From: a virus
Length of the DNA: 64,000 nucleotides
IMG/VR virus record: IMGVR_UViG_3300045988_122538
Strand: one strand, 5' to 3'
Each line of letters starts with the position of its first letter. The first letter of the stretch is position 1. The notes under the pieces were generated by a model. That model did no database searches. It was not told the DNA's origin and saw only the letters and a program-made list of their open reading frames with translations. A program made the translations under genes and the position numbers. This document shows positions 6,145-63,965 of the stretch, piece by piece.

Positions 6145-6153
6145 GATCGTTAT
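6145..6153 (+). promoter_or_regulatory. AATCGTTAT-box variant (GATCGTTAT)
   Basis: One-mismatch copy of the recurrent motif, 45 nt upstream of the tube gene start. Confidence 0.35.
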
Positions 6154-6745: not shown

Positions 6746-6754
6746 AATCGTTAT
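6746..6754 (+). promoter_or_regulatory. AATCGTTAT box (candidate phage promoter element)
   Basis: Exact copy, intergenic, 35 nt upstream of ATG 6789. Confidence 0.4.
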
Positions 6755-6788
6755 ATATTATATCAAAAACAATATTGGAGGTATCATT

Positions 6789-7133
6789 ATGAAGCATTTC
6801 AAAGCGGTTCCTGGCAAAGGCATTGTTGCAAGCAGCAATATCAAGGGCAGTAAACGCAGATCTATCAAAGCATCCACAGTCGATGAAATTGTACCTGGAT
6901 ACAGCGAGTATGATATCCAGGATGCAGCGTACAATTATATCTTAAGTGAGCTTGACGGTGATATAAATCATAGACTCACAGCTGAATCTGCTGCAGATAA
7001 TGCATTACGTGCATTTATTAAAGAATGTAAACAATACGAGGATCTTACAATCAGTGCAGATGAAGAGGCTCAGCTTCGTCCAATCTTCTATGATGTAGCT
7101 AATACTGAATTCAGCTTTGACGAAGATATGTAA
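6789..7133 (+). CDS. hypothetical protein
   Basis: 114-aa ORF with a GGAGG RBS. Basic N-terminal leader contains GIVASS and SIKAST motifs. Confidence 0.6.
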   Translation: MKHFKAVPGKGIVASSNIKGSKRRSIKASTVDEIVPGYSEYDIQDAAYNYILSELDGDINHRLTAESAADNALRAFIKECKQYEDLTISADEEAQLRPIFYDVANTEFSFDEDM

Positions 7134-29970: not shown

Positions 29971-30318
29971 GTGGACGAAATTGTATTTACTCCTGCAGCT
30001 GTATTAGATCTTTTAACACAGATTGAAGAGTTGAAAGATTATGAAATCGGAATTAAGGACGGAGTGTCTGGCAAACTTCAAGTAACCGTAGGCGAATCGG
30101 TTTACACTATTGATACAAACAACGTTGCTGAGGTTCATGTAGATGAATCTACAGTTAATGATGTAGAAGATGTAAATCAAGACGCATATTCGTCAATGTC
30201 AGATTCAGGTGAGGTTGAGCTTGAACCTATAAATTCGGGCATTATAAAACAATTTGCTAAAACATTACTTGTAGGTGGGCTTGTTCGACTTACATCTAAG
30301 ATTTTAAGTAAGGAGTGA
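29971..30318 (+). CDS. hypothetical acidic protein
   Basis: 115-aa ORF with a GTG start after AGGAGGTG. Acidic central region. Confidence 0.5.
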   Translation: MDEIVFTPAAVLDLLTQIEELKDYEIGIKDGVSGKLQVTVGESVYTIDTNNVAEVHVDESTVNDVEDVNQDAYSSMSDSGEVELEPINSGIIKQFAKTLLVGGLVRLTSKILSKE

Positions 30319-31736: not shown

Positions 31737-33218
31737 ATGGCAATTAAGAGAACAACTCGTAAGCCGACAGCATCTCGTTCTCGTATGATCAACCGTAGAC
31801 CGATTACTGCTGGCACAAGTATTACTTCTGGTGTAAGAAGCAAGCAAGCTCCTAAGTCTAAGGTAATGGCAAGCTTCAATGCACTGAACCCTGCACAGAA
31901 GGCATTTGTTCGTCAGTTGCAGGCAACTTCTCGTAGACATGCATCTATCATGGGTGCAACTAATACGAGTAACATCGCAGCAAGACCTGAATTCATGGAA
32001 CTTCTTCCGTTATTTGTACAGAAGCTCTTGATTCTTGATGTTTTTGGTTCTGTTGCAATGAAGTCTAGACAGCAGATGATTCCATACTTCAAGTTTATCG
32101 CAGAAAACACTAAGGGTGAAACTCACGCAGGTGATATTCTTTCTAGCCCAATGGTTCAGCGTCAGGGTCTAGATCCAAATTTCACAGGCAGAGTTGTTAA
32201 GAACGAAGTTATTGGTTCTGGTGTATTAACTGCAACTGCTAACACTGTTCTTACTTCTTTCGCTTATTTACCTGTTCTTCCAGGTTCTGTTACAATTGAG
32301 ACTAACATCAGCGGTACTACTACATCTTATGTAGATAACGGTATGGGTGAAATTCTCGACAGCACTCAGAAGACTATTGCTACAATTGATTACAGCACTG
32401 GTGAAATTACACCTACTACTGATGGTGCAACTCCACTTACACTTGCTGATGGCGATACAATGAGAGCTACTTATCAGTATGATAACGAGACAGTAGGTCC
32501 AAATGCACAAGGCGATTATGGTGCTCAGATGGGCAAGGGCTATTTACAGCTTGATGAATTCAACTTAATCGCTGAAGCACATCAGCTTGCTTGTTATTGG
32601 TCTGTATATTCTGCTTTCGCAGCTCAGACCGAATACGGTAGCAACATTGCAGATATTGCAAAGGAAGCAGCTTTTTCTGAACTTACTGCTGAAATCAACA
32701 CTAAGGGATTCCAAGAACTTGCAAAGGCTGCAAGCTTCAAGCCGCAGTATAACTGGGACGCATCTCCTGTACTTTCTGGTTCTGTTGTTCCTTCTGACTA
32801 TCTGAACATGTTCAAGCTCAAGCTGAATCAGGCATCTTCTGCTATTTATCAGGCAACTAGACTCTCTCGTGGTAACAGACTTGTAGTCGGAACTAACGTA
32901 GCTGCTTATGTTGCAATGATTGATGGTTTCGCTGCTGATAGCACTGAAGATACTGTTGGTCCGTACAAGGCTGGTCGTCTTGATCAGATGGAAATCTACG
33001 TTGATCCGTCTTATGATCCGAACAAGTGGGTAATGTGCTGCAAGTCTAACGACATCAGACGTAACTCTGCACTATTCGGCGAATATATGCCTTTCACTGA
33101 TACACAGGCAATTGGTCTTGCTAACTCCAGCGTTCAGCAGGGCTACGCTACAATGTATGCTATGAAGGTTGTAAACCCGGCGACCGTTGTCAGCGGTAAG
33201 ATCACAGGCGTATTTTAA
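31737..33218 (+). CDS. putative major capsid protein
   Basis: 493 aa, follows the scaffold-like gene. Codon usage is markedly biased toward C-ending Phe/Asn/Ile and CGT/GGT, typical of very high expression. Basic N-terminal leader. No family motif recognised. Confidence 0.6.
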   Translation: MAIKRTTRKPTASRSRMINRRPITAGTSITSGVRSKQAPKSKVMASFNALNPAQKAFVRQLQATSRRHASIMGATNTSNIAARPEFMELLPLFVQKLLILDVFGSVAMKSRQQMIPYFKFIAENTKGETHAGDILSSPMVQRQGLDPNFTGRVVKNEVIGSGVLTATANTVLTSFAYLPVLPGSVTIETNISGTTTSYVDNGMGEILDSTQKTIATIDYSTGEITPTTDGATPLTLADGDTMRATYQYDNETVGPNAQGDYGAQMGKGYLQLDEFNLIAEAHQLACYWSVYSAFAAQTEYGSNIADIAKEAAFSELTAEINTKGFQELAKAASFKPQYNWDASPVLSGSVVPSDYLNMFKLKLNQASSAIYQATRLSRGNRLVVGTNVAAYVAMIDGFAADSTEDTVGPYKAGRLDQMEIYVDPSYDPNKWVMCCKSNDIRRNSALFGEYMPFTDTQAIGLANSSVQQGYATMYAMKVVNPATVVSGKITGVF

Positions 33219-42149: not shown

Positions 42150-42383
42150 ATGAAGCGAAAAATCACATCTTCGAAAGTACCTGTAACTGCTGCTGAAAAC
42201 GAGTCAGCATTTGATGATATTGTATCTAACATCAAGGATGATTTTGATTACATTGTAGAAGGTCTTGAAACATTAAACAGACGAGGTACAGATTCTGCTA
42301 AGCAAGCAATGTCAATTGCTGCTACTATCAGTTCAGACCTTGAAGGCTATATTGCTAATATAGCTGAATCTATTACAAAGTGA
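42150..42383 (+). CDS. hypothetical protein
   Basis: 77-aa ORF with a GAGGTG RBS. Leader is MKRKITSSKVPVTAAE. Confidence 0.6.
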   Translation: MKRKITSSKVPVTAAENESAFDDIVSNIKDDFDYIVEGLETLNRRGTDSAKQAMSIAATISSDLEGYIANIAESITK

Positions 42384-42695: not shown

Positions 42696-43688
42696 ATGAA
42701 AATTTCTAAGCGTAAGGTATTATGTGCATCTGCTAAACAAGTTAGACGTATGAACAGATCTTCTGTAATGGCTGCTGATAGTGATTACATCAAAATCGGT
42801 AACATGGTCATTCCTAAAGACGCAAGTCAGTATGGATACGATAGTTATGAAAACATTCAGAAAGATACAAGACGTCGTTATGATACTGAGAAGGCTGCTG
42901 AAAAAGAAGCTGCGGAAAGAGCAGCTCGTGAACAGAAAGGTGCAAAGTTATATAAACAAGTTGAATCTATTGTAAATTCTGGTAATACTGCAAGTGAACA
43001 GCTTCAAGAGCTATTTGATTTGATGGTACCTAATTCGGGTTCATCTGACACGGCTGCCGGTGAATTAGTTCGTGCTATGATGCGTTTACAATACAGATGG
43101 CACAATGACGGCGATATGTTTAATCAGGGTTATGGTCTAGAAACTTGTGCTCCTTCTGCTGCATATTTATGCGATAATGTAGAACCAGCTGCTGCTCTAT
43201 TTGAACAGTTAACTGGAATTATGGAGGGTGGCGATCAACAATATGAAGATGGTCTAAATGATCTTCAATCTATTGTTATTGACTACATCGTTGATAATCC
43301 TGAATTATGTGGAATGGAACCTCCTGCTGATTCTCGTGATTACCATAGCGAAACTGTAGATTGGTTCGTAGAAGCAGGTCATAGTTATGAATATGAGCTA
43401 GATGTATCTGGTGATTTAGAGGAATACGTCAGACATGGATGTATTTCATGGACTGATGTTGAATACATGGTTGAAGAGCTCACACGCACGTATGGTGGTG
43501 AGTTAGTAGCTTGGGCTGCTGATGGGTTCACAATCACAAATCTTACAAGTGATGAATATGAAGAATGGGATAGAATGTGGATCCCGGAACTTAATGCTTA
43601 TCTTGAATCGCTTGAAGAAGAGTTTCCTAATTATGGCGAAGAAGATGACGAGTACGATGAAGAATATGATGGAGAGGAGGATTACTAA
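42696..43688 (+). CDS. hypothetical, strongly acidic protein
   Basis: 330 aa with an AAGGAG RBS. Basic leader MKISKRKVLCASAKQVRRMNRSSVMAADSD. C-terminus is EEEFPNYGEEDDEYDEEYDGEEDY. Confidence 0.6.
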   Translation: MKISKRKVLCASAKQVRRMNRSSVMAADSDYIKIGNMVIPKDASQYGYDSYENIQKDTRRRYDTEKAAEKEAAERAAREQKGAKLYKQVESIVNSGNTASEQLQELFDLMVPNSGSSDTAAGELVRAMMRLQYRWHNDGDMFNQGYGLETCAPSAAYLCDNVEPAAALFEQLTGIMEGGDQQYEDGLNDLQSIVIDYIVDNPELCGMEPPADSRDYHSETVDWFVEAGHSYEYELDVSGDLEEYVRHGCISWTDVEYMVEELTRTYGGELVAWAADGFTITNLTSDEYEEWDRMWIPELNAYLESLEEEFPNYGEEDDEYDEEYDGEEDY

Positions 43689-44203: not shown

Positions 44204-44536
44204 ATGAAGAAGTATATTAAATCAGTAAGCAACATGTCTCAATTGTCGACTTACTTAAATTTTGATGAAGCGAAAAATAAAATTCTTAAGATGCTGAATA
44301 ACGGTACTACGAAATCTGTATCTATTGTACCACGTGGTGCTGACGCAGCTTCTAAAGACATACTTGAATTAGCACAGATGCTCGAGTGTGACCAGGATAT
44401 AGCAGATGCATTAGAATCTGCAGGTGTAATCGGTCATTTAGATTTGGGGCACAACCGATACGCTCAAGGTCCTATTAGTTTGAAGTTCCGAATCACTATG
44501 AGCAAGCGTGGAAAATCCGGATGGTCTAATTGGTAA
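44204..44536 (+). CDS. hypothetical protein (MK+Y[IV]K leader family)
   Basis: 110 aa with a GAGGTGG RBS. N-terminus is MKKYIKSVSN. Confidence 0.6.
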   Translation: MKKYIKSVSNMSQLSTYLNFDEAKNKILKMLNNGTTKSVSIVPRGADAASKDILELAQMLECDQDIADALESAGVIGHLDLGHNRYAQGPISLKFRITMSKRGKSGWSNW

Positions 44537-44991: not shown

Positions 44992-45486
44992 GTGGCAGGT
45001 ATTGATGTTACACTCGGCAAGAAAGCTGAACAAAAAATTGAAGAGTGGCTTGACAGACCAAATGATGGATACTGTTTTGACAGAATACCAGATCAAATGA
45101 CAGGTTTCTATGGTTCTAAGAACATATGTGATTTCACATTGTTCAAAGCACCTAACATGTACTACATTGAGTCTAAAGCCACTTGGGAAGATAGATTTGA
45201 TTTTTCAATGCTTACACCAACACAACATGATAAGCTACTTGAGAAATCTAAAATTGCTTATGTCTATGGTGTAGTTATAATTCTGTTTGCACATCATCAA
45301 CGTGCATTTATAATTGATATAAACGACATCAAACATCTTGAAGATCAAGATAAACACTCTCTCAACATAAATAAGATTGATAATTGGAATATTCCGTACA
45401 AGGAAATCCAAACTATCCCTAACAGTCGAAAGACTTATCTAGATTATACAGGGGATTTTGATGTTGAATTTATGTGGAAGAGGTGA
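44992..45486 (+). CDS. RecU-like PD-(D/E)xK nuclease / Holliday junction resolvase
   Basis: GTG start after GGAGG. DRIPDQ...ICDFTLFKAPNMYYIESKAT...FDFSMLTPTQHDKL fits the RecU-type pattern. Confidence 0.55.
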   Translation: MAGIDVTLGKKAEQKIEEWLDRPNDGYCFDRIPDQMTGFYGSKNICDFTLFKAPNMYYIESKATWEDRFDFSMLTPTQHDKLLEKSKIAYVYGVVIILFAHHQRAFIIDINDIKHLEDQDKHSLNINKIDNWNIPYKEIQTIPNSRKTYLDYTGDFDVEFMWKR

Positions 45487-45493
45487 TAATGTT

Positions 45494-45925
45494 TTGAAAT
45501 TATATATCAAAGCTTCTAGTAATGTCATACTATCATCTGATATCAAATCATTTGTTACAAATTTGAGTAATAAGTGTTTAGATACTATCGGCTTATCATT
45601 GTATGTAGAAACCGCTAGACCTAACAAGCAAGGTACTAAGTTAGAGCTATATACATGTGGTACAAACACATGGGTTGGTGAATACACAGTTAAGTCTGAT
45701 CCAACAGAACGAGATTTCAATCGTGTATACAATGCTGTAGTAAAACGCTTTTTAGAAGTTACTCAAAATTGGTACAAAACATATCTTTCTGATAAGATGA
45801 GCATTGATGAGTCAATTGATTACACTATAACTAATAATCATATTGAACGTAAATCTAATTGTGATGTAAATACATTCAGAGAATTCATGCAAAATGCTAT
45901 CAGTTCAGGTAAGCTTCATAACTAA
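45494..45925 (+). CDS. hypothetical protein (MK+Y[IV]K leader family, TTG start inferred)
   Basis: Track frame 45458..45925 overlaps the previous gene. TTG 45494 follows GGAAGAGGTGA and gives (M)KLYIKASSN. Confidence 0.5.
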   Translation: MKLYIKASSNVILSSDIKSFVTNLSNKCLDTIGLSLYVETARPNKQGTKLELYTCGTNTWVGEYTVKSDPTERDFNRVYNAVVKRFLEVTQNWYKTYLSDKMSIDESIDYTITNNHIERKSNCDVNTFREFMQNAISSGKLHN

Positions 45926-45940
45926 CGTCCTTAATCATCA

Positions 45941-45949
45941 AATCGTTAT
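45941..45949 (+). promoter_or_regulatory. AATCGTTAT box
   Basis: Exact copy 16 nt after the stop, abutting the terminator hairpin. Confidence 0.3.
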
Positions 45950-45950
45950 A

Positions 45951-45989
45951 TAACGTGTAGCAGATAATGTTACACGTTATTTTGTTTTT
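45951..45989 (+). terminator. intrinsic terminator
   Basis: 9-bp stem TAACGTGTA/TACACGTTA with an 11-nt loop, followed by TTTTGTTTTT. Confidence 0.8.
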
Positions 45990-46030
45990 ACCTACAATTC
46001 TAAATAAACTATTAAATATAGCAAAACCTA

Positions 46031-46059
46031 TTGACTTTTTGTCGTAAATTTGCTATAAT
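46031..46059 (+). promoter_or_regulatory. consensus sigma70-type promoter with extended -10
   Basis: TTGACT (46031-36), a 17-nt spacer ending in TGC, then TATAAT (46054-59). Lies 46 nt upstream of ATG 46106. Confidence 0.8.
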
Positions 46060-46105
46060 ATAATTGTAGGATATACACATCGACATTCCAAAAGGAGGAA
46101 TTATC

Positions 46106-46456
46106 ATGAAACTTAATTCAAACGACATTTCCATCGACAACATGCACCACGGTGCTTATTCCAGCCTCGCAGGTGAATTCTACAACAATGGGTACGAACT
46201 CACTGTGGACGAGGACTGCAACCTGACTGCTGTTGCTATCAAAAACGCAGAAATGCTGCCGAAGATTGAAATCAAAACTGTGATCGAGTCTGGCAGCTAC
46301 TGCTATTCTCCGAAGGCTATTTTCCCGGTCCTCGACTTCGACGACATGGAATACTGGGATGACTTCACTCACTGGACCAACAAATACGCTGAAATTGGCA
46401 AAATGCTGTCTGACTTGGTGGAATTCACATACAACCCTAATATGTGGGAGGACTAA
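46106..46456 (+). CDS. small, very acidic, Arg-free protein with atypical codon usage (function unknown)
   Basis: 116 aa. Perfect AAGGAGG with a 7-nt spacer. 21 D/E against 7 K and no R. C/G-ending codons are preferred: all 5 Phe are TTC and no Leu is TTA. Confidence 0.75.
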   Translation: MKLNSNDISIDNMHHGAYSSLAGEFYNNGYELTVDEDCNLTAVAIKNAEMLPKIEIKTVIESGSYCYSPKAIFPVLDFDDMEYWDDFTHWTNKYAEIGKMLSDLVEFTYNPNMWED

Positions 46457-46494
46457 TCCTCAGGTTCAATCTAACATCTGTATCAACCAAAACG

Positions 46495-46525
46495 GTGTGC
46501 AAGTCATATGATTTGCACACTTTTT
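46495..46525 (+). terminator. intrinsic terminator
   Basis: 8-bp stem GTGTGCAA/TTGCACAC with a 10-nt loop, then TTTTT. Confidence 0.8.
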
Positions 46526-46550
46526 ATGTGTAATCACTGCTTATAACATG

Positions 46551-46559
46551 ATTCGTTAT
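46551..46559 (+). promoter_or_regulatory. AATCGTTAT-box variant (ATTCGTTAT)
   Basis: One-mismatch copy, intergenic, 35 nt upstream of ATG 46594. Confidence 0.3.
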
Positions 46560-46593
46560 ATATGATATCACAAACAATATGGAGGTATCTAAC

Positions 46594-47631: not shown

Positions 47632-48294
47632 ATGGTTGGAATTCCAAGTACTATCAAGCAATATGCTCAGGAAGATATAAATGCAGCATTAGGTAGAGTA
47701 AGTCATAACATGAAGTTCAAATCAATGACTTTTGAAACTAGCAAAGTAGATAGACTGAGCAATAATTATACAGTATATGCAACAGCTACTATATTGTGTC
47801 CAGATTTAAGACTACAGTTTGATTTCATTATGGAATATGCTGTAGAAAATGATTATGTATATGCAAGTGGAGATGTAGATGAATTTGCAGCTTCACTTGA
47901 AGAACGATATGCAGAATGTGAAGATGGTAAAGATGGTGAACCTATCAAAGCATCCACTCGGATCAAACGTAAGCCTATTATGGCTGCTGATATAGATAGT
48001 GAAGATGAAGATGAGTTTGTAGATACTGTAGATGATTTATCTGATAGCGTTGATGATATTCAAGATACACTTGATGAAATTGACGGTACAGAAATTGAAG
48101 AAGACGATATAGATATTGATCTTGATAACAACATTGCAAATCACTACATTGCAGAATGTGACACTTGTCATGGCATCTTTATTTCTGCACTTGTTGAATC
48201 TGATCAAGAAGTTGAAAAAGTATCCGGTATATGCCCTCTTTGCGATAAGGAAACAGACCAGTACCTCAAATTCATTGTTCGTCCTGTAGAATAA
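47632..48294 (+). CDS. hypothetical acidic protein with C-terminal zinc ribbon
   Basis: 220 aa with an AGGAGG RBS. Contains a D/E run (DIDSEDEDEFVDTVDDLSDSVDDIQDTLDEIDGTEIEEDDIDIDLD) and CDTCHG...CPLCD. Confidence 0.6.
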   Translation: MVGIPSTIKQYAQEDINAALGRVSHNMKFKSMTFETSKVDRLSNNYTVYATATILCPDLRLQFDFIMEYAVENDYVYASGDVDEFAASLEERYAECEDGKDGEPIKASTRIKRKPIMAADIDSEDEDEFVDTVDDLSDSVDDIQDTLDEIDGTEIEEDDIDIDLDNNIANHYIAECDTCHGIFISALVESDQEVEKVSGICPLCDKETDQYLKFIVRPVE

Positions 48295-49219: not shown

Positions 49220-50872
49220 ATGCGTATAATTAAATCGCAGAGAAATATTGCTGCTTCTTATATGCCTCCTAATCCATATGATATAGGTCCCAGTGACCCT
49301 AAGGAGTACAAGGTAGCAGATACTTCTAACTACGAACTTAACGTTCAATTTGACGATCCTATTATCATTTATGATGATGGTGATTTTGAATTTACTTCTG
49401 ATAAGTACAATCTTGACCCTGCTCCTGACAGTACTGGTGAATATAAGGATGAAGAATACAATGTAAATGTCATTGATGCAGATACTTTGTATGATATCAT
49501 ATATGGTCAGTTGATTCAGAAACATGTAACGGAAAAATATCCGTCTGGTAGATATCGTGTAACTGGTATCATTACGCTTCAATTTGACATTGATGGTGTT
49601 GAATATGATGAGGAGTTTTACGGTATTGATGAAGACGGTGATCCAGATTATTCTCGTGATTACTATGCTGATAATGCTGATAATGCTGATGCAAAACTTG
49701 TAAGTTTAGACTTAACAAGCTTGAATATTACAGCTGAAATCAATAGTGCTAGCGATATAATTGTATCAGCTGATGACGAAGAAACATGGGATTATCTCAA
49801 AAGCAAGCAAGTTACAGACTCCGACGGTATGCTAACAGATTATACATTGTATGTAAATTCTGATGGTTCTCGTTACATCTGTATGTTCGGTGATAATGAC
49901 GTATATGAACCAGATCCTGCGTATGCCGACTGGGAAGGCGATTCTGAAGAAGAAGCTTATGAATGGTTCAACAACTACACTTCAGGATATGAAGATGAAG
50001 ATGACATCTATGGTGCTACAAACACTTCTAATTCTGCAGAGTATGCAGGTGAACGAAACTATGATGGTACACATGTATTCTTGGTGAGGTCACCGTTGTT
50101 TGATAACATGACGTATGAAAACATGCTTCGTGATATGAGTCAGTATCGTGTAGAATCTACAGGATATTCCGATACTTTATGCGTGTATGCTGAACCTGAT
50201 GAAAAACAAGGTGTCCTTGATTTAATTGAGGATTTCAATCAGAATATTTCTGATGATAATATTATCAGTGCAACTGATGTTGATTACGAAGATGATATAC
50301 AAGAAATTGGTCAGGAATTCACATCAGAAAATACCTCCATCAACAACAATCGACTCCCTGCGGTTTTCAACATGGTAAGTTTTGAACCTGGTACTGTAAA
50401 CATTGATTACGGTGGAGGTAAATTTGACAATGTTGCAGAATACCTCACACAGTATGATGTTGTAAACTTAGTTTATGACCCATATAACAGAACTGCAGAG
50501 CATAACAAAGAAGTAATTCGTCTTGTAAGGGAGCATGGTGGTGCTGATACTGCTACTTGCTCTAATGTGCTGAATGTTATCAAGGAACCTGAAGTACGAC
50601 TCAACGTATTAAACAACATCAAGAAGCTTGTAAAGCCTAATGGTAAGGTTTACATCACAGTATATGAGGGCAAGGGCAATAATGCTGAAGGTCCTACAAA
50701 GTCTGGCTATCAGCTTAATAGGAAGACAGCAGAATATATGGATGAAATTCAACAAGTATTTCCTGATGCAAAACGTAAGGGCAAGTTGATTGTTGCTACT
50801 AATAGTAGTGGTTCTGTAACAAGTGCTACAAATGAATCTTGCTATGACAATACTAGCTTAACTACCTTGTAA
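49220..50872 (+). CDS. acidic N-terminal region fused to a class I SAM-methyltransferase-like domain
   Basis: 550 aa. The first ~330 aa are D/E/Y-rich. C-terminal motifs: IDYGGGKFD (motif I-like), LVYDPY (acidic end of beta-2), CSNVLNVI, VKPNGKVYITVYEG. Confidence 0.5.
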   Translation: MRIIKSQRNIAASYMPPNPYDIGPSDPKEYKVADTSNYELNVQFDDPIIIYDDGDFEFTSDKYNLDPAPDSTGEYKDEEYNVNVIDADTLYDIIYGQLIQKHVTEKYPSGRYRVTGIITLQFDIDGVEYDEEFYGIDEDGDPDYSRDYYADNADNADAKLVSLDLTSLNITAEINSASDIIVSADDEETWDYLKSKQVTDSDGMLTDYTLYVNSDGSRYICMFGDNDVYEPDPAYADWEGDSEEEAYEWFNNYTSGYEDEDDIYGATNTSNSAEYAGERNYDGTHVFLVRSPLFDNMTYENMLRDMSQYRVESTGYSDTLCVYAEPDEKQGVLDLIEDFNQNISDDNIISATDVDYEDDIQEIGQEFTSENTSINNNRLPAVFNMVSFEPGTVNIDYGGGKFDNVAEYLTQYDVVNLVYDPYNRTAEHNKEVIRLVREHGGADTATCSNVLNVIKEPEVRLNVLNNIKKLVKPNGKVYITVYEGKGNNAEGPTKSGYQLNRKTAEYMDEIQQVFPDAKRKGKLIVATNSSGSVTSATNESCYDNTSLTTL

Positions 50873-50891
50873 AATCAGAAGTAACTACACG

Positions 50892-50900
50892 AATCGTTAT
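50892..50900 (+). promoter_or_regulatory. AATCGTTAT box
   Basis: Exact copy 20 nt after the stop, abutting the terminator hairpin. Lies 62 nt upstream of ATG 50962. Confidence 0.35.
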
Positions 50901-50943
50901 AGACTACATAATCAATTCCAATTGGTTATGTAGTCTATTTTAT
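50901..50943 (+). terminator. intrinsic terminator
   Basis: 11-bp stem AGACTACATAA/TTATGTAGTCT with a 14-nt loop, then ATTTTAT. Confidence 0.7.
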
Positions 50944-50961
50944 ATTAGGAGGCTCAATTGT

Positions 50962-58369: not shown

Positions 58370-58446
58370 GGGCCTTTAGCTCAGTCGGTTAGAGCAGCTG
58401 ACTCATAATCAGCAGGTCGTCAGTTCAAGCCTGACAAGGCCCACCA
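58370..58446 (+). tRNA. tRNA-Met or Ile2 (anticodon CAU), CCA encoded
   Basis: Hand fold: GGGCCTT-TA-GCTC-AGTCGGTTA-GAGC-A-GCTGA-CTCATAA-TCAGC-AGGTC-GTCAG-TTCAAGC-CTGAC-AAGGCCC-A-CCA. G1-C72 and the anticodon stem are not initiator-like. Confidence 0.9.
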
Positions 58447-58518
58447 GCCCGCAAGGGCACCTTTTATATCCCTTTGTTCTACTATTTTATTTTACTCCTT
58501 TCATTTTTTTATTTGTTG

Positions 58519-58561
58519 TCTTAGAAATGATACATATCATGTGCGAGTATCATTTCTAAGA
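58519..58561 (+). repeat. perfect 15-bp inverted repeat (hairpin)
   Basis: TCTTAGAAATGATAC (58519-33), a 13-nt loop, then GTATCATTTCTAAGA (58547-61). Follows a T-rich tract after tRNA-Met. Confidence 0.9.
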
Positions 58562-58584
58562 TACAATTTTCCTCTAAGTAGGAC

Positions 58585-58593
58585 AATCGTTAT
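58585..58593 (+). promoter_or_regulatory. AATCGTTAT box
   Basis: Exact copy 28 nt upstream of tRNA-Gln. Confidence 0.4.
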
Positions 58594-58620
58594 TGTAAGT
58601 GAAGATAATCACTTACATGA

Positions 58621-58696
58621 TGGACTATAGCCAAGGGGTAAGGCAACGGACTTTGACTCCGTCATTCCGCTGGTTCGAATCCAGCTAGTCCAACCA
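58621..58696 (+). tRNA. tRNA-Gln (anticodon UUG), CCA encoded
   Basis: Hand fold: TGGACTA-TA-GCC-AAGGGGTAA-GGC-A-ACGGA-CTTTGAC-TCCGT-CATTCC-GCTGG-TTCGAAT-CCAGC-TAGTCCA-A-CCA. U1-A72 is as in bacterial tRNA-Gln. Confidence 0.85.
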
Positions 58697-59051
58697 GCAG
58701 TAGGAGTAATTTTCTCAATTTTAACGAACCTGCACACAAAAAAACATCGGTATAAGAATTGATGACATTCGGAAAGACGAACGCTGGTTTTAGAGCAAAT
58801 GTGGTTCCAACGTAAACAAATAAACAGGGATATGCGGCGAGGCGGACCTAAACGTCGACCATGTAGTGTCAGCGTAGCGAGATGATATGCATTCACTTCA
58901 CAGGGTATAGGCTGTTTAACCTGTGAAGAACAGCCAGCAGGGGCAGGACCTGCACACTACACCAGCTGTAAAGGGTGCTTTTCTCAATTTCTAATTACCA
59001 GCCGATAAAGTAGGAGAAAATTGATGACATTCTGGAAAGACAGATATCAAT

Positions 59052-59127
59052 GCTTCGATAGCTCAGTAGGTAGAGCAGGGGACTGAAAATCCCCGTGTCA
59101 TTGGTTCGATTCCAGTTCGGAGCACCA
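59052..59127 (+). tRNA. tRNA-Phe (anticodon GAA), CCA encoded
   Basis: Hand fold: GCTTCGA-TA-GCTC-AGTAGGTA-GAGC-A-GGGGA-CTGAAAA-TCCCC-GTGTC-ATTGG-TTCGATT-CCAGT-TCGGAGC-A-CCA. Confidence 0.9.
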
Positions 59128-59136
59128 AAACCAAAT

Positions 59137-59213
59137 CCGGATGTAACTCAGTTTGGTAGAGTGCTTGCTTTGGGAGCAAGATGCCGCAGGTTCGACTCCT
59201 GTCATTCGGACCA
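59137..59213 (+). tRNA. tRNA-Pro (anticodon UGG), CCA encoded
   Basis: Hand fold: CCGGATG-TA-ACTC-AGTTTGGTA-GAGT-G-CTTGC-TTTGGGA-GCAAG-ATGCC-GCAGG-TTCGACT-CCTGT-CATTCGG-A-CCA. C1-G72 is typical of bacterial tRNA-Pro. Confidence 0.9.
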
Positions 59214-59360
59214 GCTAGAGCTCAGCAGACACACCTTGACTTCATAGCAGTCTTAAAAATGAATGGAGCCCCGATTTCATTCGATTTACAGGGTGATTGA
59301 AAAATCGGATAAATCATGATTGGGTTGGTAAACCTCAGTTCGCTGGAAGCTTCCAAATAT

Positions 59361-59447
59361 GCCGCTGTGGTGGAATAGGCAGACACAAGGGACTTAAAAT
59401 CCCTCGGAGTAAAATCCGTACCGGTTCAAGTCCGGTCAGCGGCACCA
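59361..59447 (+). tRNA. tRNA-Leu (anticodon UAA), type II, CCA encoded
   Basis: Hand fold: GCCGCTG-TG-GTG-GAATAGGCAGA-CAC-A-AGGGA-CTTAAAA-TCCCT-long variable arm CGGAGTAAAATCCGT-ACCGG-TTCAAGT-CCGGT-CAGCGGC-A-CCA. Confidence 0.9.
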
Positions 59448-59984
59448 GTGCTGTTGATAGTTTAATGAGGTCGTAAGTTCAAGTTAACCTTATGAATGAG
59501 GTTCGGGCTTATGTGCCAATAGTCTGTGGAAACAAATTTCCGTGAGGTTGTATCAGCTATATCTGATATGTAAAACTAGGTCGTGAGCAGCGGGATTGCT
59601 ACCAAACCAGCAAGCAAGGTGGATAAGCCTTGCAAACTCAGCACAAAAAATGTCAGTTCCTTCAGAATTATTGACATTGGTGTTACCTCCAGTAACCTAT
59701 AAAAAAATGATCAGGAGCTGACATTATAAGGTGAATATATCTAGTGAGATATGCGTAGGTTGCAAACTACAATTATCAACAACGTAGTGACCTAGATACA
59801 ACACATGATAAAATATGATAGTTGTTATGTCAGAGTTGCAACGATGGTGTATCAGCATCATATGGTTCATGTAAAGGATGAATCAGATCGAAGGACGATA
59901 AAGATATTATGCGTACCTGGCTGTTAATCTGTTGGAAGGTGCAAGTCCTTTATTCACCCCCAATTTTTTTCTAAGGAGAACGAT
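59448..59984 (+). ncRNA. candidate large structured ncRNA (unclassified)
   Basis: 537 nt between tRNA-Leu and the deaminase gene with no ORF of 60 aa or more. At least six perfect 5-7 bp local hairpins. Ends in a tRNA-like T-arm, acceptor strand and CCA at 59935-59962. Confidence 0.3.
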
Positions 59985-60440
59985 ATGAATCCATTCATGG
60001 AATTGGCAATGTTAGAAGCCCTTGAAGGCATTGAATTAAATCATGGTGGACCGTTTGGAGCTGTTATCGTCAAAGACGGTAAAGTGATAAGCAGGGCACA
60101 TAACATGGTGATTGCTAACAATGATCCAACTGCTCATGGTGAAATTCAAGCAATTAGATCTGCATGTAAGAAACTCAATACATTTGATCTAACAGGTTGT
60201 GAAATTTACACTACTGGATATCCTTGTCCAATGTGTTTTTGTGCTATCCTTTGGTCAAACATTGATAAGGTGTATTACGGCTGTAATACATCTGATACAG
60301 AAATAATTGGATTTCGTGACAAGCAGTTTTATGATTCTATTCCTGCTAAGATGCAGGAGATATGTTATGAAGTAGATAGACAAGAATGTTTATCTATTTA
60401 CAACACTTACAACAATATGTCAGATGCTACTAATTACTAA
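59985..60440 (+). CDS. CDA-fold zinc deaminase, guanine-deaminase (GuaD)-like
   Basis: GGPFGAVIVKDGKVISRAHN...NDPTAHGEIQAIR...GYPCPMCFCAILWS closely parallels B. subtilis-type guanine deaminase. Zinc motifs are H(G)E and PCxxC. Confidence 0.8.
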   Translation: MNPFMELAMLEALEGIELNHGGPFGAVIVKDGKVISRAHNMVIANNDPTAHGEIQAIRSACKKLNTFDLTGCEIYTTGYPCPMCFCAILWSNIDKVYYGCNTSDTEIIGFRDKQFYDSIPAKMQEICYEVDRQECLSIYNTYNNMSDATNY

Positions 60441-60471
60441 TGTATTCAAGCTGATGTAACAGTCAGCATAT

Positions 60472-60553
60472 GCAGATGTGGTGAAAGCGGAAGCCACCTA
60501 GATTGAGTTCTAGCCCTTGTAGGATGCAGGTTCAAATCCTGCCATCTGCACCA
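60472..60553 (+). tRNA. type II tRNA-like gene with non-canonical anticodon loop (identity undetermined, possibly Ser-UGA-like or pseudogene)
   Basis: Good acceptor (GCAGATG/CATCTGC-A-CCA), T-arm (GCAGG-TTCAAAT-CCTGC), D-arm and variable arm. The anticodon arm CTAG-ATTGAGTT-CTAG gives only a 6-nt or 8-nt loop. Confidence 0.5.
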
Positions 60554-60850
60554 GAAACACAAAGTAAAGTGAAAGTACTCGTGAAAAGATTACAAACACT
60601 GAGATAAAACCATGGAGCTACTTGACATTAAGTAGTAGAGAAGTGGGTGTATCAGTAGCTTTATCATCATAGACCTTGTGGTTGGAGTAGCTGTCGCTAG
60701 GACAATATGCGATGCTGCATATAATTGCAGTGAGTGTCCCAGCTATTCTTAGTGTTTAGAGGTATCATAAAAAGTACCTGATTAGATGTCGGTGAGTATC
60801 GGCTAAACGTCAAAAGCTTTTCGTGTGACTATTACGAAAAATAGTCATAT

Positions 60851-60935
60851 GCGGATATGGTGAAATTGGCAGACACGTTAGATTTAGGTTCTAATGCCGT
60901 AAGGTGTGCAGGTTCGAGTCCTGTTATCCGCACCA
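60851..60935 (+). tRNA. tRNA-Leu (anticodon UAG), type II, CCA encoded
   Basis: Hand fold: GCGGATA-TG-GTG-AAATTGGCAGA-CAC-G-TTAGA-TTTAGGT-TCTAA-TGCCGTAAGGTGT-GCAGG-TTCGAGT-CCTGT-TATCCGC-A-CCA. Confidence 0.9.
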
Positions 60936-61276
60936 CAGGTTCTTGCATTCCAACCTAAGAGCACAAAAAAGACGAATGTAACTTGCTGCTAGCACTAGGA
61001 TAGTGGCATTTTAGACACCCTAGGGTTTTCATCCTTAACCTTAAAAAGGATAGACTATTTGAGCATTAGATAGGCTTTATGTTCGTTGTAGCTGCTTGCC
61101 TTTGTAGGGGTGGCTAGCGGACTAGTCCGATGTGCTAGGACATTAGTGCAATTAGCTCAGCAGTATGTCATGAATCTAATGTGTATTATTCTGCTAGGCA
61201 TGATATTATAGGTGAGTCTTTATATAAAGCGTGCTGTTCGGCAAACAGATATGATGCGGGGCAGCAACACCTATAT

Positions 61277-61367
61277 GTAGGAGTACCCAAGAGGTTCAAG
61301 GGAGCGGTCTTGAAAATCGCCAGCACAGGTGACTGTGGCGTGGGTTCGAATCCCACCTTCTACGCCA
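61277..61367 (+). tRNA. tRNA-Ser (anticodon UGA), type II, CCA encoded
   Basis: Hand fold: GTAGGAG-TA-CCC-AAGAGGTTCAA-GGG-A-GCGGT-CTTGAAA-ATCGC-CAGCACAGGTGACTGTGGC-GTGGG-TTCGAAT-CCCAC-CTTCTAC-G-CCA. Confidence 0.85.
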
Positions 61368-61408
61368 ATTTGTATTTCAAATAATGTGTATATGTAAAGG
61401 AGGAACTT

Positions 61409-61582
61409 ATGAAAGTATATGATAAAGATGATGATATGGAAGAATGCACTTCTCCATATGGTAACAGATCTTTGTTCATAACAAAAGAACAAATACAGGC
61501 TTTACTTGATGGTAAAGTGTTAGCCGATGATGAGTTTGATGAATATGGAATTTTCATTGAATTAGAAGATGCTGAAAAGTAG
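61409..61582 (+). CDS. small acidic ORF (57 aa)
   Basis: Below the ORF-track cutoff. AAGGAGG RBS, ATG 61409. Sequence is MKVYDKDDDMEECTSPYGNRSLFITKEQIQALLDGKVLADDEFDEYGIFIELEDAEK. Stop TAG is at 61580-82. Confidence 0.5.
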   Translation: MKVYDKDDDMEECTSPYGNRSLFITKEQIQALLDGKVLADDEFDEYGIFIELEDAEK

Positions 61583-61647
61583 GGTATGGTGTAACGGATA
61601 ACACAGGCGATTGCGAAGTATATCCAGTTCAATTCTGGAACCCTACA
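61579..61647 (+). pseudogene. tRNA-like element (good acceptor and T-arm, no foldable anticodon arm)
   Basis: GTAGGGT (61579-85) pairs with ACCCTAC (61640-46). T-arm is TCCAG-TTCAATT-CTGGA and D-arm is GTGT-AACGGATA-ACAC. Only 69 nt, no CCA, and the anticodon stem does not pair. Confidence 0.3.
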
Positions 61648-61745
61648 CAAAACTCGCTCGGTAATATCGAGGCGTAATAATTCCATTGACCTGTCGGGTT
61701 CACTCGGCAGGTCATATTACAATATGTAAAAAGAGGTTGAAAGTT

Positions 61746-62261
61746 ATGAGAAAACAAGTTGTAATCATCAATGGCAGTGGTGGAGTAGGTAAAGATACAT
61801 TCATTGATACATTGTCTAAAACATGTTTCAGTGAAAATGACGTATGGAATTATTCTTCTATTGACAAGATAAAAGAAATAGCAAAAACTATTGGTTGGGA
61901 TGGCAAGAAAGACGAAGCAGGTCGTAGATTTTTAGCAGGTCTAAAACATGTATGCGATGAGTATAACAACTTATCATTTGAAATGATGCGAGAGAAATAC
62001 TCAGAATTTCAGAAGAGCTCAGCTTCTATTCTATTCTTACATATACGCGAACCATACAACATTGAGTTTGCGAAGAATGCTTTTAGTGCTGTAACAGTAT
62101 TGGTAAGGCGGGATTCTGTAGAGCATATAACATCAAATGAAGCCGATATGAACGTAGAAAATTATTACTATGATTATGTTGTACACAACGATTCTGACAT
62201 TGAGGGTCTAAAAGATGAATGTCATAAATTCATCTATTACCTTAACAGTATCATAGACTAA
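61746..62261 (+). CDS. P-loop kinase (dNMP-kinase-like)
   Basis: Track frame 61686..62261. ATG 61746 follows GAGG. P-loop is INGSGGVGKDTF. 171 aa. Confidence 0.55.
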   Translation: MRKQVVIINGSGGVGKDTFIDTLSKTCFSENDVWNYSSIDKIKEIAKTIGWDGKKDEAGRRFLAGLKHVCDEYNNLSFEMMREKYSEFQKSSASILFLHIREPYNIEFAKNAFSAVTVLVRRDSVEHITSNEADMNVENYYYDYVVHNDSDIEGLKDECHKFIYYLNSIID

Positions 62262-62278
62262 TAACTACCAAACATAAA

Positions 62279-62287
62279 AATCGTTAT
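62279..62287 (+). promoter_or_regulatory. AATCGTTAT box (candidate phage promoter element)
   Basis: Exact copy, intergenic, 56 nt upstream of ATG 62343. Confidence 0.4.
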
Positions 62288-62342
62288 ATACTATGTAAAC
62301 AAGATATTCATAACATATCGAAACACGAAAGGAGAATTATCA

Positions 62343-63221
62343 ATGAACAAAGTATATAGTGAATTTCGTAGAGGTGATGTTTGGTTCGTCAAGCTGAACA
62401 CAGAGTTTGGTGATAATCAGGACAATTCATCTGTTCAACGTAAGAGCAGACCATATCTCATTGTGTCATGCGAAGCTAACAACAACTGCGCACCTACAAT
62501 CAATGCGGTTCCAATTACTACACGTCCTAGTGACCATCTTCCGATGCACATCTATTATGATTATAACGGTAGACATCAGCTTATTCTCTGTGAGCAGATT
62601 ACAACATTGTCTGTTCTTGATTTTCACAGAAGTGGTTCTCATTACATGTATAACTTGAGTGTTGATTTCATGAATACTGTAGATGATGCATTGTCTGCTC
62701 AGCTGGGTTTGCGTCCGAGAGTTGCTGATATGAAGGTACTTGAAAACCTTATTGATAAGATCTCAGCAGATAAAGAAGCAGAACTTAAACGTAAATACGA
62801 AGATGCTATTCAGTCTAAGGTATCTGAAATCGCTGCAAAGTTAGCTAAGAAGTTCAATGTAGATCTTACTTCTCAGGATATGCTTGATGGCGTAACTTAT
62901 AGACCTTCTGAAATTGCTTATGCGTCCAGTGAGGATAAGAAAACGATTTCTGATACAGCAAAAGAGCGTATGACATCGTCATCATCTGTGTCTGAACCTG
63001 AAGAACACATCACAGTTAAAACAAATGCAACTGCTGATGGATCTAAAAAATCAGATAAGAAACACAGCAGACGACAGTGGACAGAAGCAGCTATGAAGGA
63101 ATTTTTAGCAGCAAGTTCTCATCTTTCTGTATCAGCAATGTCTGCTAAATACGGAATTGCAAAGAAATCTGTAACACAGTATGTTTGCTTGTTCAAGAAG
63201 AAGTTGGAAACAAAGGATTAA
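62343..63221 (+). CDS. MazF/PemK-like domain fused to a long C-terminal extension ending in an HTH-like segment
   Basis: The N-terminal ~110 aa (RGDVWFVKL...QRKSRPYLIVS...VPITTRP...LILCEQITTLS) fit the PemK/MazF pattern. The C-terminal ~180 aa are low-complexity, followed by MSAKYGIAKKSVTQYVCLFKKKL. Confidence 0.65.
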   Translation: MNKVYSEFRRGDVWFVKLNTEFGDNQDNSSVQRKSRPYLIVSCEANNNCAPTINAVPITTRPSDHLPMHIYYDYNGRHQLILCEQITTLSVLDFHRSGSHYMYNLSVDFMNTVDDALSAQLGLRPRVADMKVLENLIDKISADKEAELKRKYEDAIQSKVSEIAAKLAKKFNVDLTSQDMLDGVTYRPSEIAYASSEDKKTISDTAKERMTSSSSVSEPEEHITVKTNATADGSKKSDKKHSRRQWTEAAMKEFLAASSHLSVSAMSAKYGIAKKSVTQYVCLFKKKLETKD

Positions 63222-63230
63222 GGTGATATA

Positions 63231-63830
63231 ATGACACCTAAGGAGCTGTTTGATGCTAACACGAGCATTGTAGGATGGTGTTTCAAAAAATATGTAAACA
63301 ATTACAAATCTCCTGAATTTGATGACATTATGCAAGAGGGTATGCTTGGCCTATGGGAAGCAGCTTGTAGATTTGATGACTCTAAAGGATATAAATTCAC
63401 AACATTCGCAGTACCATATGTATTTGGTCGTATGAAACACTATATGAGAAATAAAACAAATGTAATAAGACCACCTAGATCTGTATTTGAAAACAGTGAT
63501 GTTAAAGCATTATCTGAACTATACAGCATACAGTCATTAGATATGGAAGTGTTTGATGACGGTGGTACACCTGTATTATTACGAGACTTGATAGGTGCTC
63601 CTCCTGATGAATACGAATTCATAACAGAAGATCTACTTGAAAGCTTTCTTGATACTATCGACAATCAACTGCACAAAGATATCATGGAAGAGTATTATTA
63701 CTCGTACATATGGGGAATACATTCTAAACAAGTGTACCTGGCAGAAAAGTATGGAACTTGTCAGGCTCAAATTGCTCGAATAATCAAGAAGTACAATCAG
63801 AAATTTGTAGATTTTATACAAAAGTCCTAA
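63231..63830 (+). CDS. sigma-70-family sigma factor
   Basis: Region 2-like: DIMQEGMLGLWEAACRFDDSKGYKFTTFAVPYVFGRMKHYMR. Region 4-like HTH: AEKYGTCQAQIARIIKK. 199 aa. Confidence 0.8.
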   Translation: MTPKELFDANTSIVGWCFKKYVNNYKSPEFDDIMQEGMLGLWEAACRFDDSKGYKFTTFAVPYVFGRMKHYMRNKTNVIRPPRSVFENSDVKALSELYSIQSLDMEVFDDGGTPVLLRDLIGAPPDEYEFITEDLLESFLDTIDNQLHKDIMEEYYYSYIWGIHSKQVYLAEKYGTCQAQIARIIKKYNQKFVDFIQKS

Positions 63831-63840
63831 CAATAATCAA

Positions 63841-63873
63841 TATCATCTACCTTATATAAGTATGTAGATGATA
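63841..63873 (+). terminator. hairpin after the sigma gene, enclosing a TACCTTATATA box
   Basis: Perfect 10-bp inverted repeat TATCATCTAC/GTAGATGATA with a 13-nt loop. No clear U-tract. The motif variant at 63848-58 spans the 5' arm and loop. Confidence 0.4.
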
Positions 63874-63878
63874 TACAT

Positions 63879-63965
63879 GCCGGTGTGATGGAATTGGCAG
63901 ACATAGTTGACTCAAAATCATCTGATATATTTATCGTGTGGGTTCGAGTCCCGCCACCGGCACCA
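63879..63965 (+). tRNA. tRNA-Leu (anticodon CAA), type II, CCA encoded
   Basis: Hand fold: GCCGGTG-TG-ATG-GAATTGGCAGA-CAT-A-GTTGA-CTCAAAA-TCATC-TGATATATTTATCGT-GTGGG-TTCGAGT-CCCGC-CACCGGC-A-CCA. One U-U mismatch in the anticodon stem. Confidence 0.8.

Follow-up and report, generated by a model that had tools for sequence, protein, structure and literature searches.

A 64-kb stretch of viral DNA, IMG/VR record IMGVR_UViG_3300045988_122538 (hereafter the window; positions are numbered from its first letter), contains a compact cassette in which two terminators enclose a consensus sigma70-type promoter and a single open reading frame (ORF) for an acidic protein of 116 amino acids (aa). This regulatory element is a new, non-homologous form of a known kind of cassette, namely the promoter-early stem-loop (PeSL) elements, which occur in T4-type phages as repeated, mobile regulatory cassettes (Arbiol et al. 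2010, PMC2839356; Comeau et al. 2014, PMC4122927), and the gene that it drives belongs to an undescribed protein family. The window derives from a clade of ~120-kb uncultured gut myoviruses that are not T4-type phages. We consider it highly probable that the cassette works as a PeSL-like early-expression module. That such a module has captured a conserved, fast-evolving accessory gene is the best explanation of the locus as a whole, and we give this explanation an even chance.

Organization of the cassette

The promoter of the cassette (46031–46059, + strand) is of the sigma70/sigmaA type and consists of a −35 element, TTGACT (46031–46036), a 17-nt spacer, and an extended −10 element, TGcTATAAT (46051–46059), with a predicted transcription start site at ~46066. 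It matches the consensus at 11 of 12 positions in addition to the extended −10 and is the best site on both strands of the window. No other site in the 64 kb, on either strand, has at least 11 of 12 consensus matches together with a spacer of 17 nt and an extended −10, and only 0.15 promoters of such quality are expected per window by chance (Markov-1 simulations). The promoter is preceded by an AT-rich tract resembling an UP element (TTCTAAATAAACTATTAAAT..., 45996–46030, +; 83% AT over 35 nt) and, further upstream, by terminator 1 (45950–45990, +), which comprises a 13-bp hairpin (45950–45980) and a T-run (−16.4 kcal/mol, z = −5.7). A Shine-Dalgarno (SD) sequence, AAGGAGG (46092–46098, +), ends 7 nt before the ATG at 46106, and the 116-aa ORF (46106–46456, +) encodes a protein of 13.4 kDa with an isoelectric point (pI) of 4.25 and no Arg, a member of a RecU-adjacent phage family. 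The monocistronic unit is closed by terminator 2 (46494–46527, +), consisting of a 12-bp hairpin (46494–46521) and a T-run (−17.8 kcal/mol, z = −5.0). An Rfam scan of the cassette yielded no match.

The terminators, promoter, SD sequence, and ORF that the first-pass annotation had described from this stretch are thus all present, and its picture of an insulated monocistronic unit with a host-type promoter, a consensus SD sequence, and codons of an optimal type is supported; the control elements are invariant in nine copies of the module described below. Its statement that the promoter is the only one of its kind is correct within the window and fails for the genome as a whole, because homologous copies exist in the same lineage. 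Terminator 1 appears to be placed so as to stop transcripts arriving from the RecU operon, and host RNA polymerase would fire the sigma70-type promoter without phage factors, i.e. at the start of infection.

The gene for the RecU-like Holliday-junction resolvase (44992–45486, +; Pfam RecU, 6e-5; PHROG 843, 2e-18) is the conserved anchor directly 5' of the variable island in which the cassette lies, with 60–81% identity across 36 related loci. The upstream operon that terminator 1 stops ends with a hypothetical 143-aa ORF (45494–45925, +), which carries the leader of the clade (M/V-LKLYIKASS) and is also present in the sister genomes L052 and L140–142. In the ORF list this ORF starts at 45458; the GTG at 45494 is the likelier start, giving the leader (M)LKLYIKASS.

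A repeated and recombining module

The cassette is one copy of a module of ~180 bp, which consists of a phage-type promoter motif (see below), a hairpin, a T-run, an AT tract, the −35 element, the extended −10 element, a conserved leader, and the SD sequence. In the sister genomes L052 and L140–L142, the module occurs twice, i.e. upstream of a gene for a hypothetical protein of 401/407 aa (L052, 4618–5841; L140, 1099–2322; L141 and L142, 1115–2320) and upstream of the 116-aa gene. The two paralogous copies are ~85% identical, and their hairpin arms differ by paired substitutions that preserve the stem, so that the pairing of terminator 1 is maintained in the paralogous copy (−16.1 kcal/mol). 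Among nine module copies, the −35 element, TGcTATAAT, the SD sequence, the hairpin, and the phage-type motif are invariant, and positions in the spacer vary. The AT-rich tract is conserved in all copies, and so is the SD sequence.

The window differs from its sisters in that its sequence passes from the flank upstream of copy 1 directly into the hairpin of copy 2, with the joint inside the AATCGTTATATAA sequence that both copies share; the 407-aa gene is absent between positions 45953 and 45954. This gene, which has ordinary codons, follows a module in every other genome sampled from the lineage, and the genome of the window is a deletion variant. To judge from these junctions, recombination between the module copies removed the 407-aa gene from it. 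A 401-aa homologue of the 401/407-aa gene was found elsewhere in L007.

A third homologous copy (L014, 2541–2963) lies in a sister genome, ~7.4 kb upstream of the point at which the window starts, and drives an 80-aa ORF (2667–2909), which is monocistronic, has ordinary codons, contains a CxxC...CxxC pattern (zinc-ribbon-like), and precedes a strong terminator that looks bidirectional (2935–2963). The sister genome IMGVR_UViG_3300045988_101827 contains three homologous copies, each preceding a single gene (the 80-, 407-, and 116-aa ORFs), and Pfam searches assigned none of these three module-driven ORFs to a family. Strong host-type promoters are also found in the RecU islands of other lineages, where perfect 12/12 TTGACA-17-TATAAT sites number ~10 in 284 kb, compared with 0.086 expected (~100-fold). 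They were located at L025 4990, L028 6165, L031 4625, L032 5178, L033/L044 5281, L038 4931, L039 6347, and L040 368; several directly follow terminator hairpins, and the genes that they drive have ordinary codons.

Like PeSLs, the module is a composite intergenic element in which a stem-loop terminator and an AT-rich tract are combined with a strong promoter of the sigma70 consensus. In both systems, the elements are repeated within a genome, lie in a hypervariable region, and precede single genes of unknown function, and recombination between copies results in the gain or loss of genes between near-identical genomes, with breakpoints inside the elements. They differ in that PeSLs have GGGG...CCCC (polyG/polyC) stems, whereas the hairpins described here are AT-rich, and no sequence homology exists between the two. 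The number of recognisably homologous copies, two to three per genome, is far smaller than that of the PeSLs in RB49 and phi1. Unlike PeSLs, the module resides in an uncultured non-T4 myovirus of gut Bacillota and contains a second, phage-specific promoter motif inside the terminator arm; moreover, PeSLs are marked by experimentally demonstrated promoter and terminator activities and by mini-circle formation, whereas the activities of the module are predicted. On these features, it is to be classed as an analogue of PeSLs and not as a homologue. The PeSL principle is thereby extended from T4-type coliphages to unrelated, uncultured phages of the human gut, probably with Gram-positive hosts. 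Repeated terminator-plus-promoter modules, which serve both to express accessory genes and to reshuffle them, suggest a general, convergent way in which large virulent phages organize adaptive gene islands.

A phage-type promoter motif and its candidate sigma factor

The phage-specific, promoter-like motif AATCGTTATATAA (45941–45953, +) overlaps the 5' arm of terminator 1 and marks the point of recombination where the 407-aa gene known from the sister genomes is missing. In its general form, AATCGTTAT(A/T)(T/A)A, the motif is strand-specific and intergenic, lies 25–67 nt upstream of the starts of structural, replication, and tRNA genes, and has no visible −35 element. When TCGTTATATA was searched with at most one mismatch, 19 matches were obtained, compared with 7.6 ± 2.5 expected, and this number was reached in none of 100 shuffles. 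Copies on the + strand are located at 6148, 6749, 36398, 40222, 42104, 45944, 46554, 50895, 54807, 58183, 58588, and 62282, and the motif was also found upstream of the orthologues in L022 and L143. The copy that follows the cassette, ATTCGTTATATAT (46551–46563, +), is predicted to restart transcription for the HD-domain gene. The listed start of that gene is 46579; the ATG at 46594 is likelier (GGAGG 8 nt upstream), and it is from there that a 305-aa product is called in other contigs.

An overlap between the motif and the 5' arm of a strong hairpin with a T-run was also observed at 50890–50950 (hairpin 50899–50938, −21.7 kcal/mol) and in L007 at ~6750–6810, which suggests a recurrent design in which a promoter is embedded in a terminator, such that upstream transcripts are stopped and new ones restarted. 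At terminator 1, the phage-type motif would start transcripts inside the hairpin. Transcripts starting within the hairpin arm would therefore be unable to form the hairpin and would read through, whereas those from upstream would terminate. The 116-aa gene probably stays on later in infection through this motif. If such read-through occurs, the ORF has two promoters, one of the host type and one of the phage type, and the description of the unit as immediate-early only is too narrow.

A phage-encoded sigma factor of 199 aa (63231–63830, +), in which only region 2 was detected (Pfam Sigma70_r2, 2e-12), is a candidate reader of the AATCGTTATATAA motif; if it is, the consensus sigma70 promoter of the cassette would be exceptional among the promoters of this genome. 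The combination of a motif without a −35 element and a sigma factor with region 2 only resembles the late promoters of the T4 gp55 type, which consist of a single element. The sigma factor gene is itself located behind a copy of the phage-type motif (62282).

Codon usage of the 116-aa ORF

The atypical composition reported for this ORF in the first pass (GC of 56/120 in the first 120 nt; TTC for 5 of 5 Phe, AAC for 7 of 10 Asn, and no TTA; 21 D/E, 7 K, and no R in the protein) was exact in every count, and the codon anomaly proved to be even stronger than had been reported. The net charge of the protein is approximately −14. The GC content at third codon positions (GC3) is 0.629, compared with 0.11–0.49 for all 71 other ORFs in the window, whereas the first and second positions (GC1 and GC2) are ordinary. 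Among the two-fold degenerate pyrimidine-ending (NNY) codons, 33 of 39 (85%) end in C, compared with a background of 31%, and no shift to G is seen in purine-ending (NNR) codons (5/17 or 29%, compared with 40%). The codon preferences of the ORF correlate with those of the capsid genes (Spearman 0.61, P = 2e-6) and lie on the same axis at a more extreme position: both avoid TTA, CTA, CCA, GTA, ACA, ATA, GGA, and AGT, and both have gained CCG, GGC, AGC, ATC, and ACT. The bias is maintained in the five alleles of the window's lineage (GC3 0.57–0.63), with proportions of synonymous differences (pS) between alleles of up to 0.29.

Since GC1 and GC2 are ordinary, NNR codons are not shifted, no donor with more than 48% identity was found, and the bias persists across alleles, translational selection is preferred over a foreign origin. 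The natural reading of usage of the optimal-codon type is very high expression through the host machinery, and we think it probable, on these codon statistics, that the ORF has been selected for this. The protein would then be needed in very large, stoichiometric amounts. Some observations weigh against this interpretation. The ORF uses CTC/CTG for Leu and GTG for Val where the capsid genes use CTT and GTT, and causes other than translational selection are therefore possible. In the two other genes that follow homologous modules, GC3 is 0.33 (the 407-aa gene) and 0.23, i.e. they lack codon optimization, and the module itself therefore does not imply extreme expression.

The tRNAs of the phage mostly match the A/T-ending codons of the bulk of the phage genes, which the capsid genes and the 116-aa ORF avoid; codons read by these tRNAs make up 10% of the 116-aa ORF, 14% of the capsid genes, and 40% of the bulk. 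Avoidance of these codons was considered as a mark of early expression, before the phage tRNAs are made, and was rejected, since the capsid genes, which are late, avoid them too.

An undescribed protein family

An exhaustive phmmer search of 1.84 billion representatives (E ≤ 1e-3) recovered 97 representative relatives of the 116-aa protein (clusters at 50% identity), almost all of 105–135 aa, so that the protein, for which no family had been recognised initially, does have one. The nearest relatives are 34–48% identical, and none closer than 48% was found among these representatives. A word-seeded protein search recovered only the query's own 90% cluster, and its profile version nine members. 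Two giant cadherin/VCBS-like matches of the phmmer search (P0020 and P0039) were discarded as artefacts of low-complexity repeats. The family has near-invariant residues at Y30, P52, F73-P74, D85, and W94, a partly conserved acidic loop (77–86, DFDDMEYWDD), and a conserved acidic-aromatic C-terminal tail, P-x-x-[YW]-E-D, and its pI ranges from 4.05 to 5.25 (median 4.4). Searches against Pfam, PHROG, NCBIfam, and PADLOC gave no match for the 116-aa protein or for any of 90 aligned members, and a PDB sequence profile search gave none beyond flagellar-hook noise (E = 0.2). Pfam detected no domain in the members with C-terminal extensions (P0018 and P0094), which therefore provide no hint of a domain fusion.

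AlphaFold2, run with the 90-sequence alignment, produced a confident model (pLDDT 91.3, pTM 0.81) with an alpha/beta fold composed of two short helices, a four-stranded sheet, and a long C-terminal helix; the N-terminal ~10 residues are flexible (pLDDT 58). Foldseek found nothing significant in PDB (best E = 1.3) or in BFVD, where the best match was an uncharacterised protein (E = 0.09, TM 0.45); KA1/AMPK-like matches with TM of 0.3–0.4 were dismissed as noise. As modelled, the 116-aa protein is a member of an undescribed family of ~115-aa acidic alpha/beta proteins with a new-looking fold. The antisense ORF at 46118–46372 is spurious, as had been noted earlier: it is the sense frame that has homologues, the purifying selection described below, and a model of this quality.

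Distribution and evolution of the gene

Related loci were gathered by RecU anchoring; the family is too divergent for searches with back-translated patterns. In every relative with recoverable DNA, the family gene lies just downstream of a RecU-like resolvase gene and between SNF2 and UvrD helicase genes, as in the window, and it often overlaps the RecU stop codon. Such loci include L003–L010, L022–L044, and the P0019 contig. The gene occupies this position in at least 13 lineages besides that of the window, and this conserved position across the clade indicates that the gene is not a recent foreign acquisition. In the window's lineage, the gene is separated from RecU by a terminator and another ORF. 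A detectable family member is present in 19 of 45 RecU-anchored loci; in the remaining loci, other small proteins, most of them acidic, fill the slot. This slot after RecU is hypervariable, as is the interval between RecU and the HD-domain gene, and relatives hold an S-adenosylmethionine (SAM) lyase (L008), Phage_30_3, or holins there.

The orthologues of the 13 other lineages have GC3 values of 0.16–0.41 and a C-ending NNY fraction equal to the local background, and no promoter scoring above 10/12 was found upstream of them. All sampled relatives lie in AT-rich contexts and have ordinary codons; the consensus promoter and a GC3 of 0.57–0.63 occur together only in the window and its near-identical sisters. 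From this distribution, the promoter and the codon optimization are derived states of one lineage. In the sister clade (81% identity in RecU and 85% in SNF2), an ordinary family copy is located behind the phage-type motif.

Within the lineage, the 116-aa gene is present in all five sampled alleles and is under strong purifying selection, with a ratio of nonsynonymous to synonymous substitutions (dN/dS) of 0.05–0.13; multi-allelic sites are found at positions 24, 63–64, 80, and 99. Between lineages, it is the most divergent of the shared genes of the neighbourhood, with 34.5% identity to the sister clade compared with 53–85% for its neighbours. It is also closer to a more distant phage (47%) than to the sister clade, in disagreement with the relationships of the neighbouring genes, and alleles therefore appear to have been exchanged.

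A shared N-terminal leader

A basic N-terminal leader, MK[KR]x[IV][KR][AS][AS], is present in a fixed register in 45 of 90 family members, compared with an internal frequency of 0.7%. In the window, the pattern M-K-[KR]-x-[IV]-[KR]-[ASC]-[AST] was found in 9 of 70 ORFs, compared with 1.2 expected (P = 3e-6), and the carriers are clustered beside the cassette (starts at 42150, 42696, 43688, 43955, 44617, 45494, and 49220; also 7262 and 61686, with a near-match at 44204). In related RecU islands (loci L003–L046), 40 of 193 ORFs carry it. The carriers are otherwise unrelated and include a GNAT protein (44617), a methyltransferase-domain protein (49220), and the SAM lyase of L008. Similar strings, basic-x-I-x-A-[SG], occur near the N-termini of the major capsid protein (MCP; 31737), the protease (30315), and the products of 34887 and neighbouring head genes. 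The copy in the window (MKLNSNDISID...) lacks the leader, having neither the basic pair nor I-x-A-S. The possibility that the N-terminal 'KRYI' leader is a mere translation of the CGTTATAT promoter motif was rejected, as those gene starts lack the DNA motif.

By analogy with the capsid targeting sequence (CTS) of T4, the leader may be a signal for the prohead protease or for capsid targeting. The internal proteins (IPs) of T4 are diverse injected defence proteins that share only the CTS (PMC3012670), and their loci are flanked by PeSL analogues (PMC2839356). As in the T4 IP loci, small hypervariable proteins, flanks with a promoter and a stem-loop, and a short N-terminal leader common to unrelated proteins are found here, and a counter-defence role is plausible. 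Unlike the CTS, the leader described here is basic, with I-x-[AS]-[AS], and its function is presumed; moreover, the window's copy of the 116-aa protein lacks it.

Possible functions of the 116-aa protein

As the protein has neither homology nor a fold assignment, its function has to be read from design and context. To judge from its signals and codons, the gene appears to be designed for a higher output than all other genes of the window. We favour, at somewhat less than an even chance, the reading that its product is an abundant, stoichiometric binder that would neutralize a host component (a defence or takeover target), rather than an enzyme. This reading is based on the constraint within the lineage, the extreme divergence between lineages, the hypervariable island, and the anti-restriction-type genes that lie beside the gene in relatives. 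The pattern of host takeover or anti-defence proposed in the first pass is retained to this extent, since a small, acidic, and fast-evolving protein in a hypervariable island fits it; the analogy with T7 Ocr, which the first pass also drew, is not. Constraint within and turnover between lineages, a confidently modelled fold without known neighbours, and an extreme expression design form the profile that is sought for new anti-defence or takeover proteins, and the gene, which is small and easily synthesized, is a good candidate, though an unproven one, for a host-directed or anti-defence factor of early infection. Several points speak against a host-directed role. The location in the replication/recombination module and the frequent translational coupling to RecU fit a phage-internal role equally well, the leader on half of the family could mean virion cargo rather than an early cytoplasmic factor, and sequence, profile, and Foldseek searches gave no homology or fold tie to any known inhibitor. 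The terms 'early' and 'abundant', as applied to the protein, are themselves read from sequence alone.

Other explanations of the protein's role are less probable. It may be an abundant virion-internal protein that is ejected like the T4 IPs, packaged through its leader and present in high copy per capsid, as the leader frequencies in the family, the window, and the related islands, the leader-like strings on the MCP, protease, and head genes, the flexible N-terminal residues of the model, the sharing of only a targeting sequence by the PeSL-flanked T4 IPs (PMC3012670, PMC2839356), and the resemblance of the dual early and phage-type promoters to T4 IP loci would suggest; we regard this as unlikely. 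The function of the leader is conjectural, the gene is not part of the structural module, and, since the window's copy has lost the leader, packaging by this route is unlikely for this protein. A role as an accessory factor of phage recombination or replication, e.g. a partner or regulator of RecU for which demand happens to be high in this lineage, is equally unlikely. It would account for the position directly downstream of RecU in nearly all lineages, often over its stop codon (hence the translational coupling), for the location between the SNF2 helicase gene and those for UvrD and SbcC, and for the acidic-aromatic C-terminal tail, which recalls the interaction tails of SSB-type proteins. 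It is difficult to reconcile with the presence of the family in only 19 of the 45 RecU-anchored loci, where unrelated small proteins otherwise fill the slot, with a divergence far faster than that of RecU (34.5% versus 81% identity to the sister clade) and an incongruent phylogeny, and with the terminator and ORF that separate the two genes in the window's lineage. A broader proposal, which we also hold to be improbable and which builds on the leader found on ~20% of the ORFs around RecU, is that the clade has an arsenal of fast-evolving counter-defence proteins that are normally packaged in the capsid and ejected as leader-marked cargo, and that the window's lineage has lost the leader and switched to mass production of an inhibitor with a new anti-defence fold, which would begin as soon as the DNA has entered and would draw on the PeSL-like cassette with its host promoter and on fully optimized codons. 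If this is true, packaging and immediate-early overexpression are interchangeable ways to have an inhibitor at time zero.

The suggestion that the protein is an Ocr-like DNA mimic, blocking restriction-modification or other DNA-binding defence enzymes, is slightly less likely still. The product of T7 gene 0.3 (Ocr) is likewise small and very acidic, and the strong promoter, host RNA polymerase, and large-amount synthesis predicted here resemble its own; the length of 116 aa, the net charge and pI given above, the partly conserved acidic loop, the early-type promoter, and the anti-restriction-type genes near the gene in relatives (the SAM lyase of L008 and the Lar_restr_allev genes of L011) are in line with it. 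The analogy rests on size and charge, and charge is not distinctive in this phage: proteins at 42696–43688, 47632–48294, 49220–50872, and 29971–30318 are as acidic or more so (−0.12 to −0.16 net charge per residue), the whole family is equally acidic, and acidity alone therefore does not single out the 116-aa protein. Ocr is all-helical, whereas the predicted fold is mixed alpha/beta. The AlphaFold and Foldseek check that had been proposed for a likeness to DNA mimics yielded the confident model described above without a significant neighbour (no match at E below 0.09 in PDB or BFVD), and no PDB-chain or Pfam sequence match was found. Unlike gene 0.3, the gene lies in a mid-genome recombination module and belongs to a family usually co-transcribed with RecU rather than driven by an early promoter. 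The least likely explanation is a moron, i.e. a recent horizontal acquisition with the composition of its donor, which the first pass had offered as its alternative. The morons that Juhala et al. (2000) and Hendrix are said to have described in lambdoid and other phages are reportedly autonomous promoter-gene-terminator units unlike their neighbours in composition, and the gene has its own promoter and terminator, a deviant composition, a phylogeny incongruent with that of its neighbours, CTG/CTC and GTG usage above even that of the capsid genes, and, in the 407-aa gene, a neighbour that is truly a present/absent cassette. Unlike a moron, which is an insertion, the gene has orthologues at the conserved position after RecU in no fewer than 13 other lineages, and none of the five alleles lacks it. 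Its compositional shift affects synonymous sites only and differs between codon classes, with ordinary GC1 and GC2 and no G-shift in NNR codons, and high GC3 is kept across the alleles at a pS of up to 0.29; the relatives, none above 48% identity among the 1.84 billion representatives, lie in AT-rich contexts wherever sampled and have ordinary codons.

Genome, host, and other genes

The genome to which the window belongs was observed as ~124–126-kb contigs in many human-gut metagenomes. The window has a GC content of 37%, i.e. it is AT-rich, and every gene is on the + strand. A structural module (1–39 kb, +), including genes for the protease, the MCP (31737–33218), and the baseplate, is followed by a replication/recombination module (40–57 kb, +) with SNF2- and UvrD-type helicases, RecU, an HD phosphohydrolase, and SbcC. 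Nine tRNA genes are located at 58370–63965, specifying Met, Gln-UUG, Phe-GAA, Pro-UGG, Leu-UAA, Leu-UAG, Leu-CAA, and Ser-UGA, with one aberrant call (60472–60553). No evidence that the phage is temperate was found. In megablast and tblastn searches against 50,697 deposited phages, the locus, the 116-aa protein, and RecU gave no match; the MCP gave only matches of 23–27% identity, and it is 25–27% identical to those of myoviruses of Bacillus, Listeria, and Streptococcus. The phage-specific motif, the sigma factor with region 2 only, and the shared leader provide entry points into this clade, which has no cultured member.

The endolysin (Amidase_2 with CW_7 repeats), RecU, and the holin families of relatives point to a host among the gut Bacillota, and the host is placed to that level only. 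A search with the endolysin yielded CW_7 domains of Erysipelotrichaceae, Solobacterium, Ruminococcus, and Lachnospiraceae as family-level hints. A single full-length endolysin match with 75% identity was set aside as a host clue, since it is probably a phage contig binned into a metagenome-assembled genome.

Directly 5' of the sigma factor gene, a 292-aa protein (62343–63221) contains a PemK/MazF-type toxin domain (Pfam), and the codon preferences of its gene are the nearest of all genes to those of the capsid genes (r = 0.73). Downstream of the window (L011, 17968–18734), two genes with Lar_restr_allev (restriction alleviation) domains lie among many small ORFs, and anti-restriction functions are therefore encoded elsewhere in the genome. 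The same downstream part of the genome (L011) also encodes NrdD, an NAD-dependent ligase, and ThyX.

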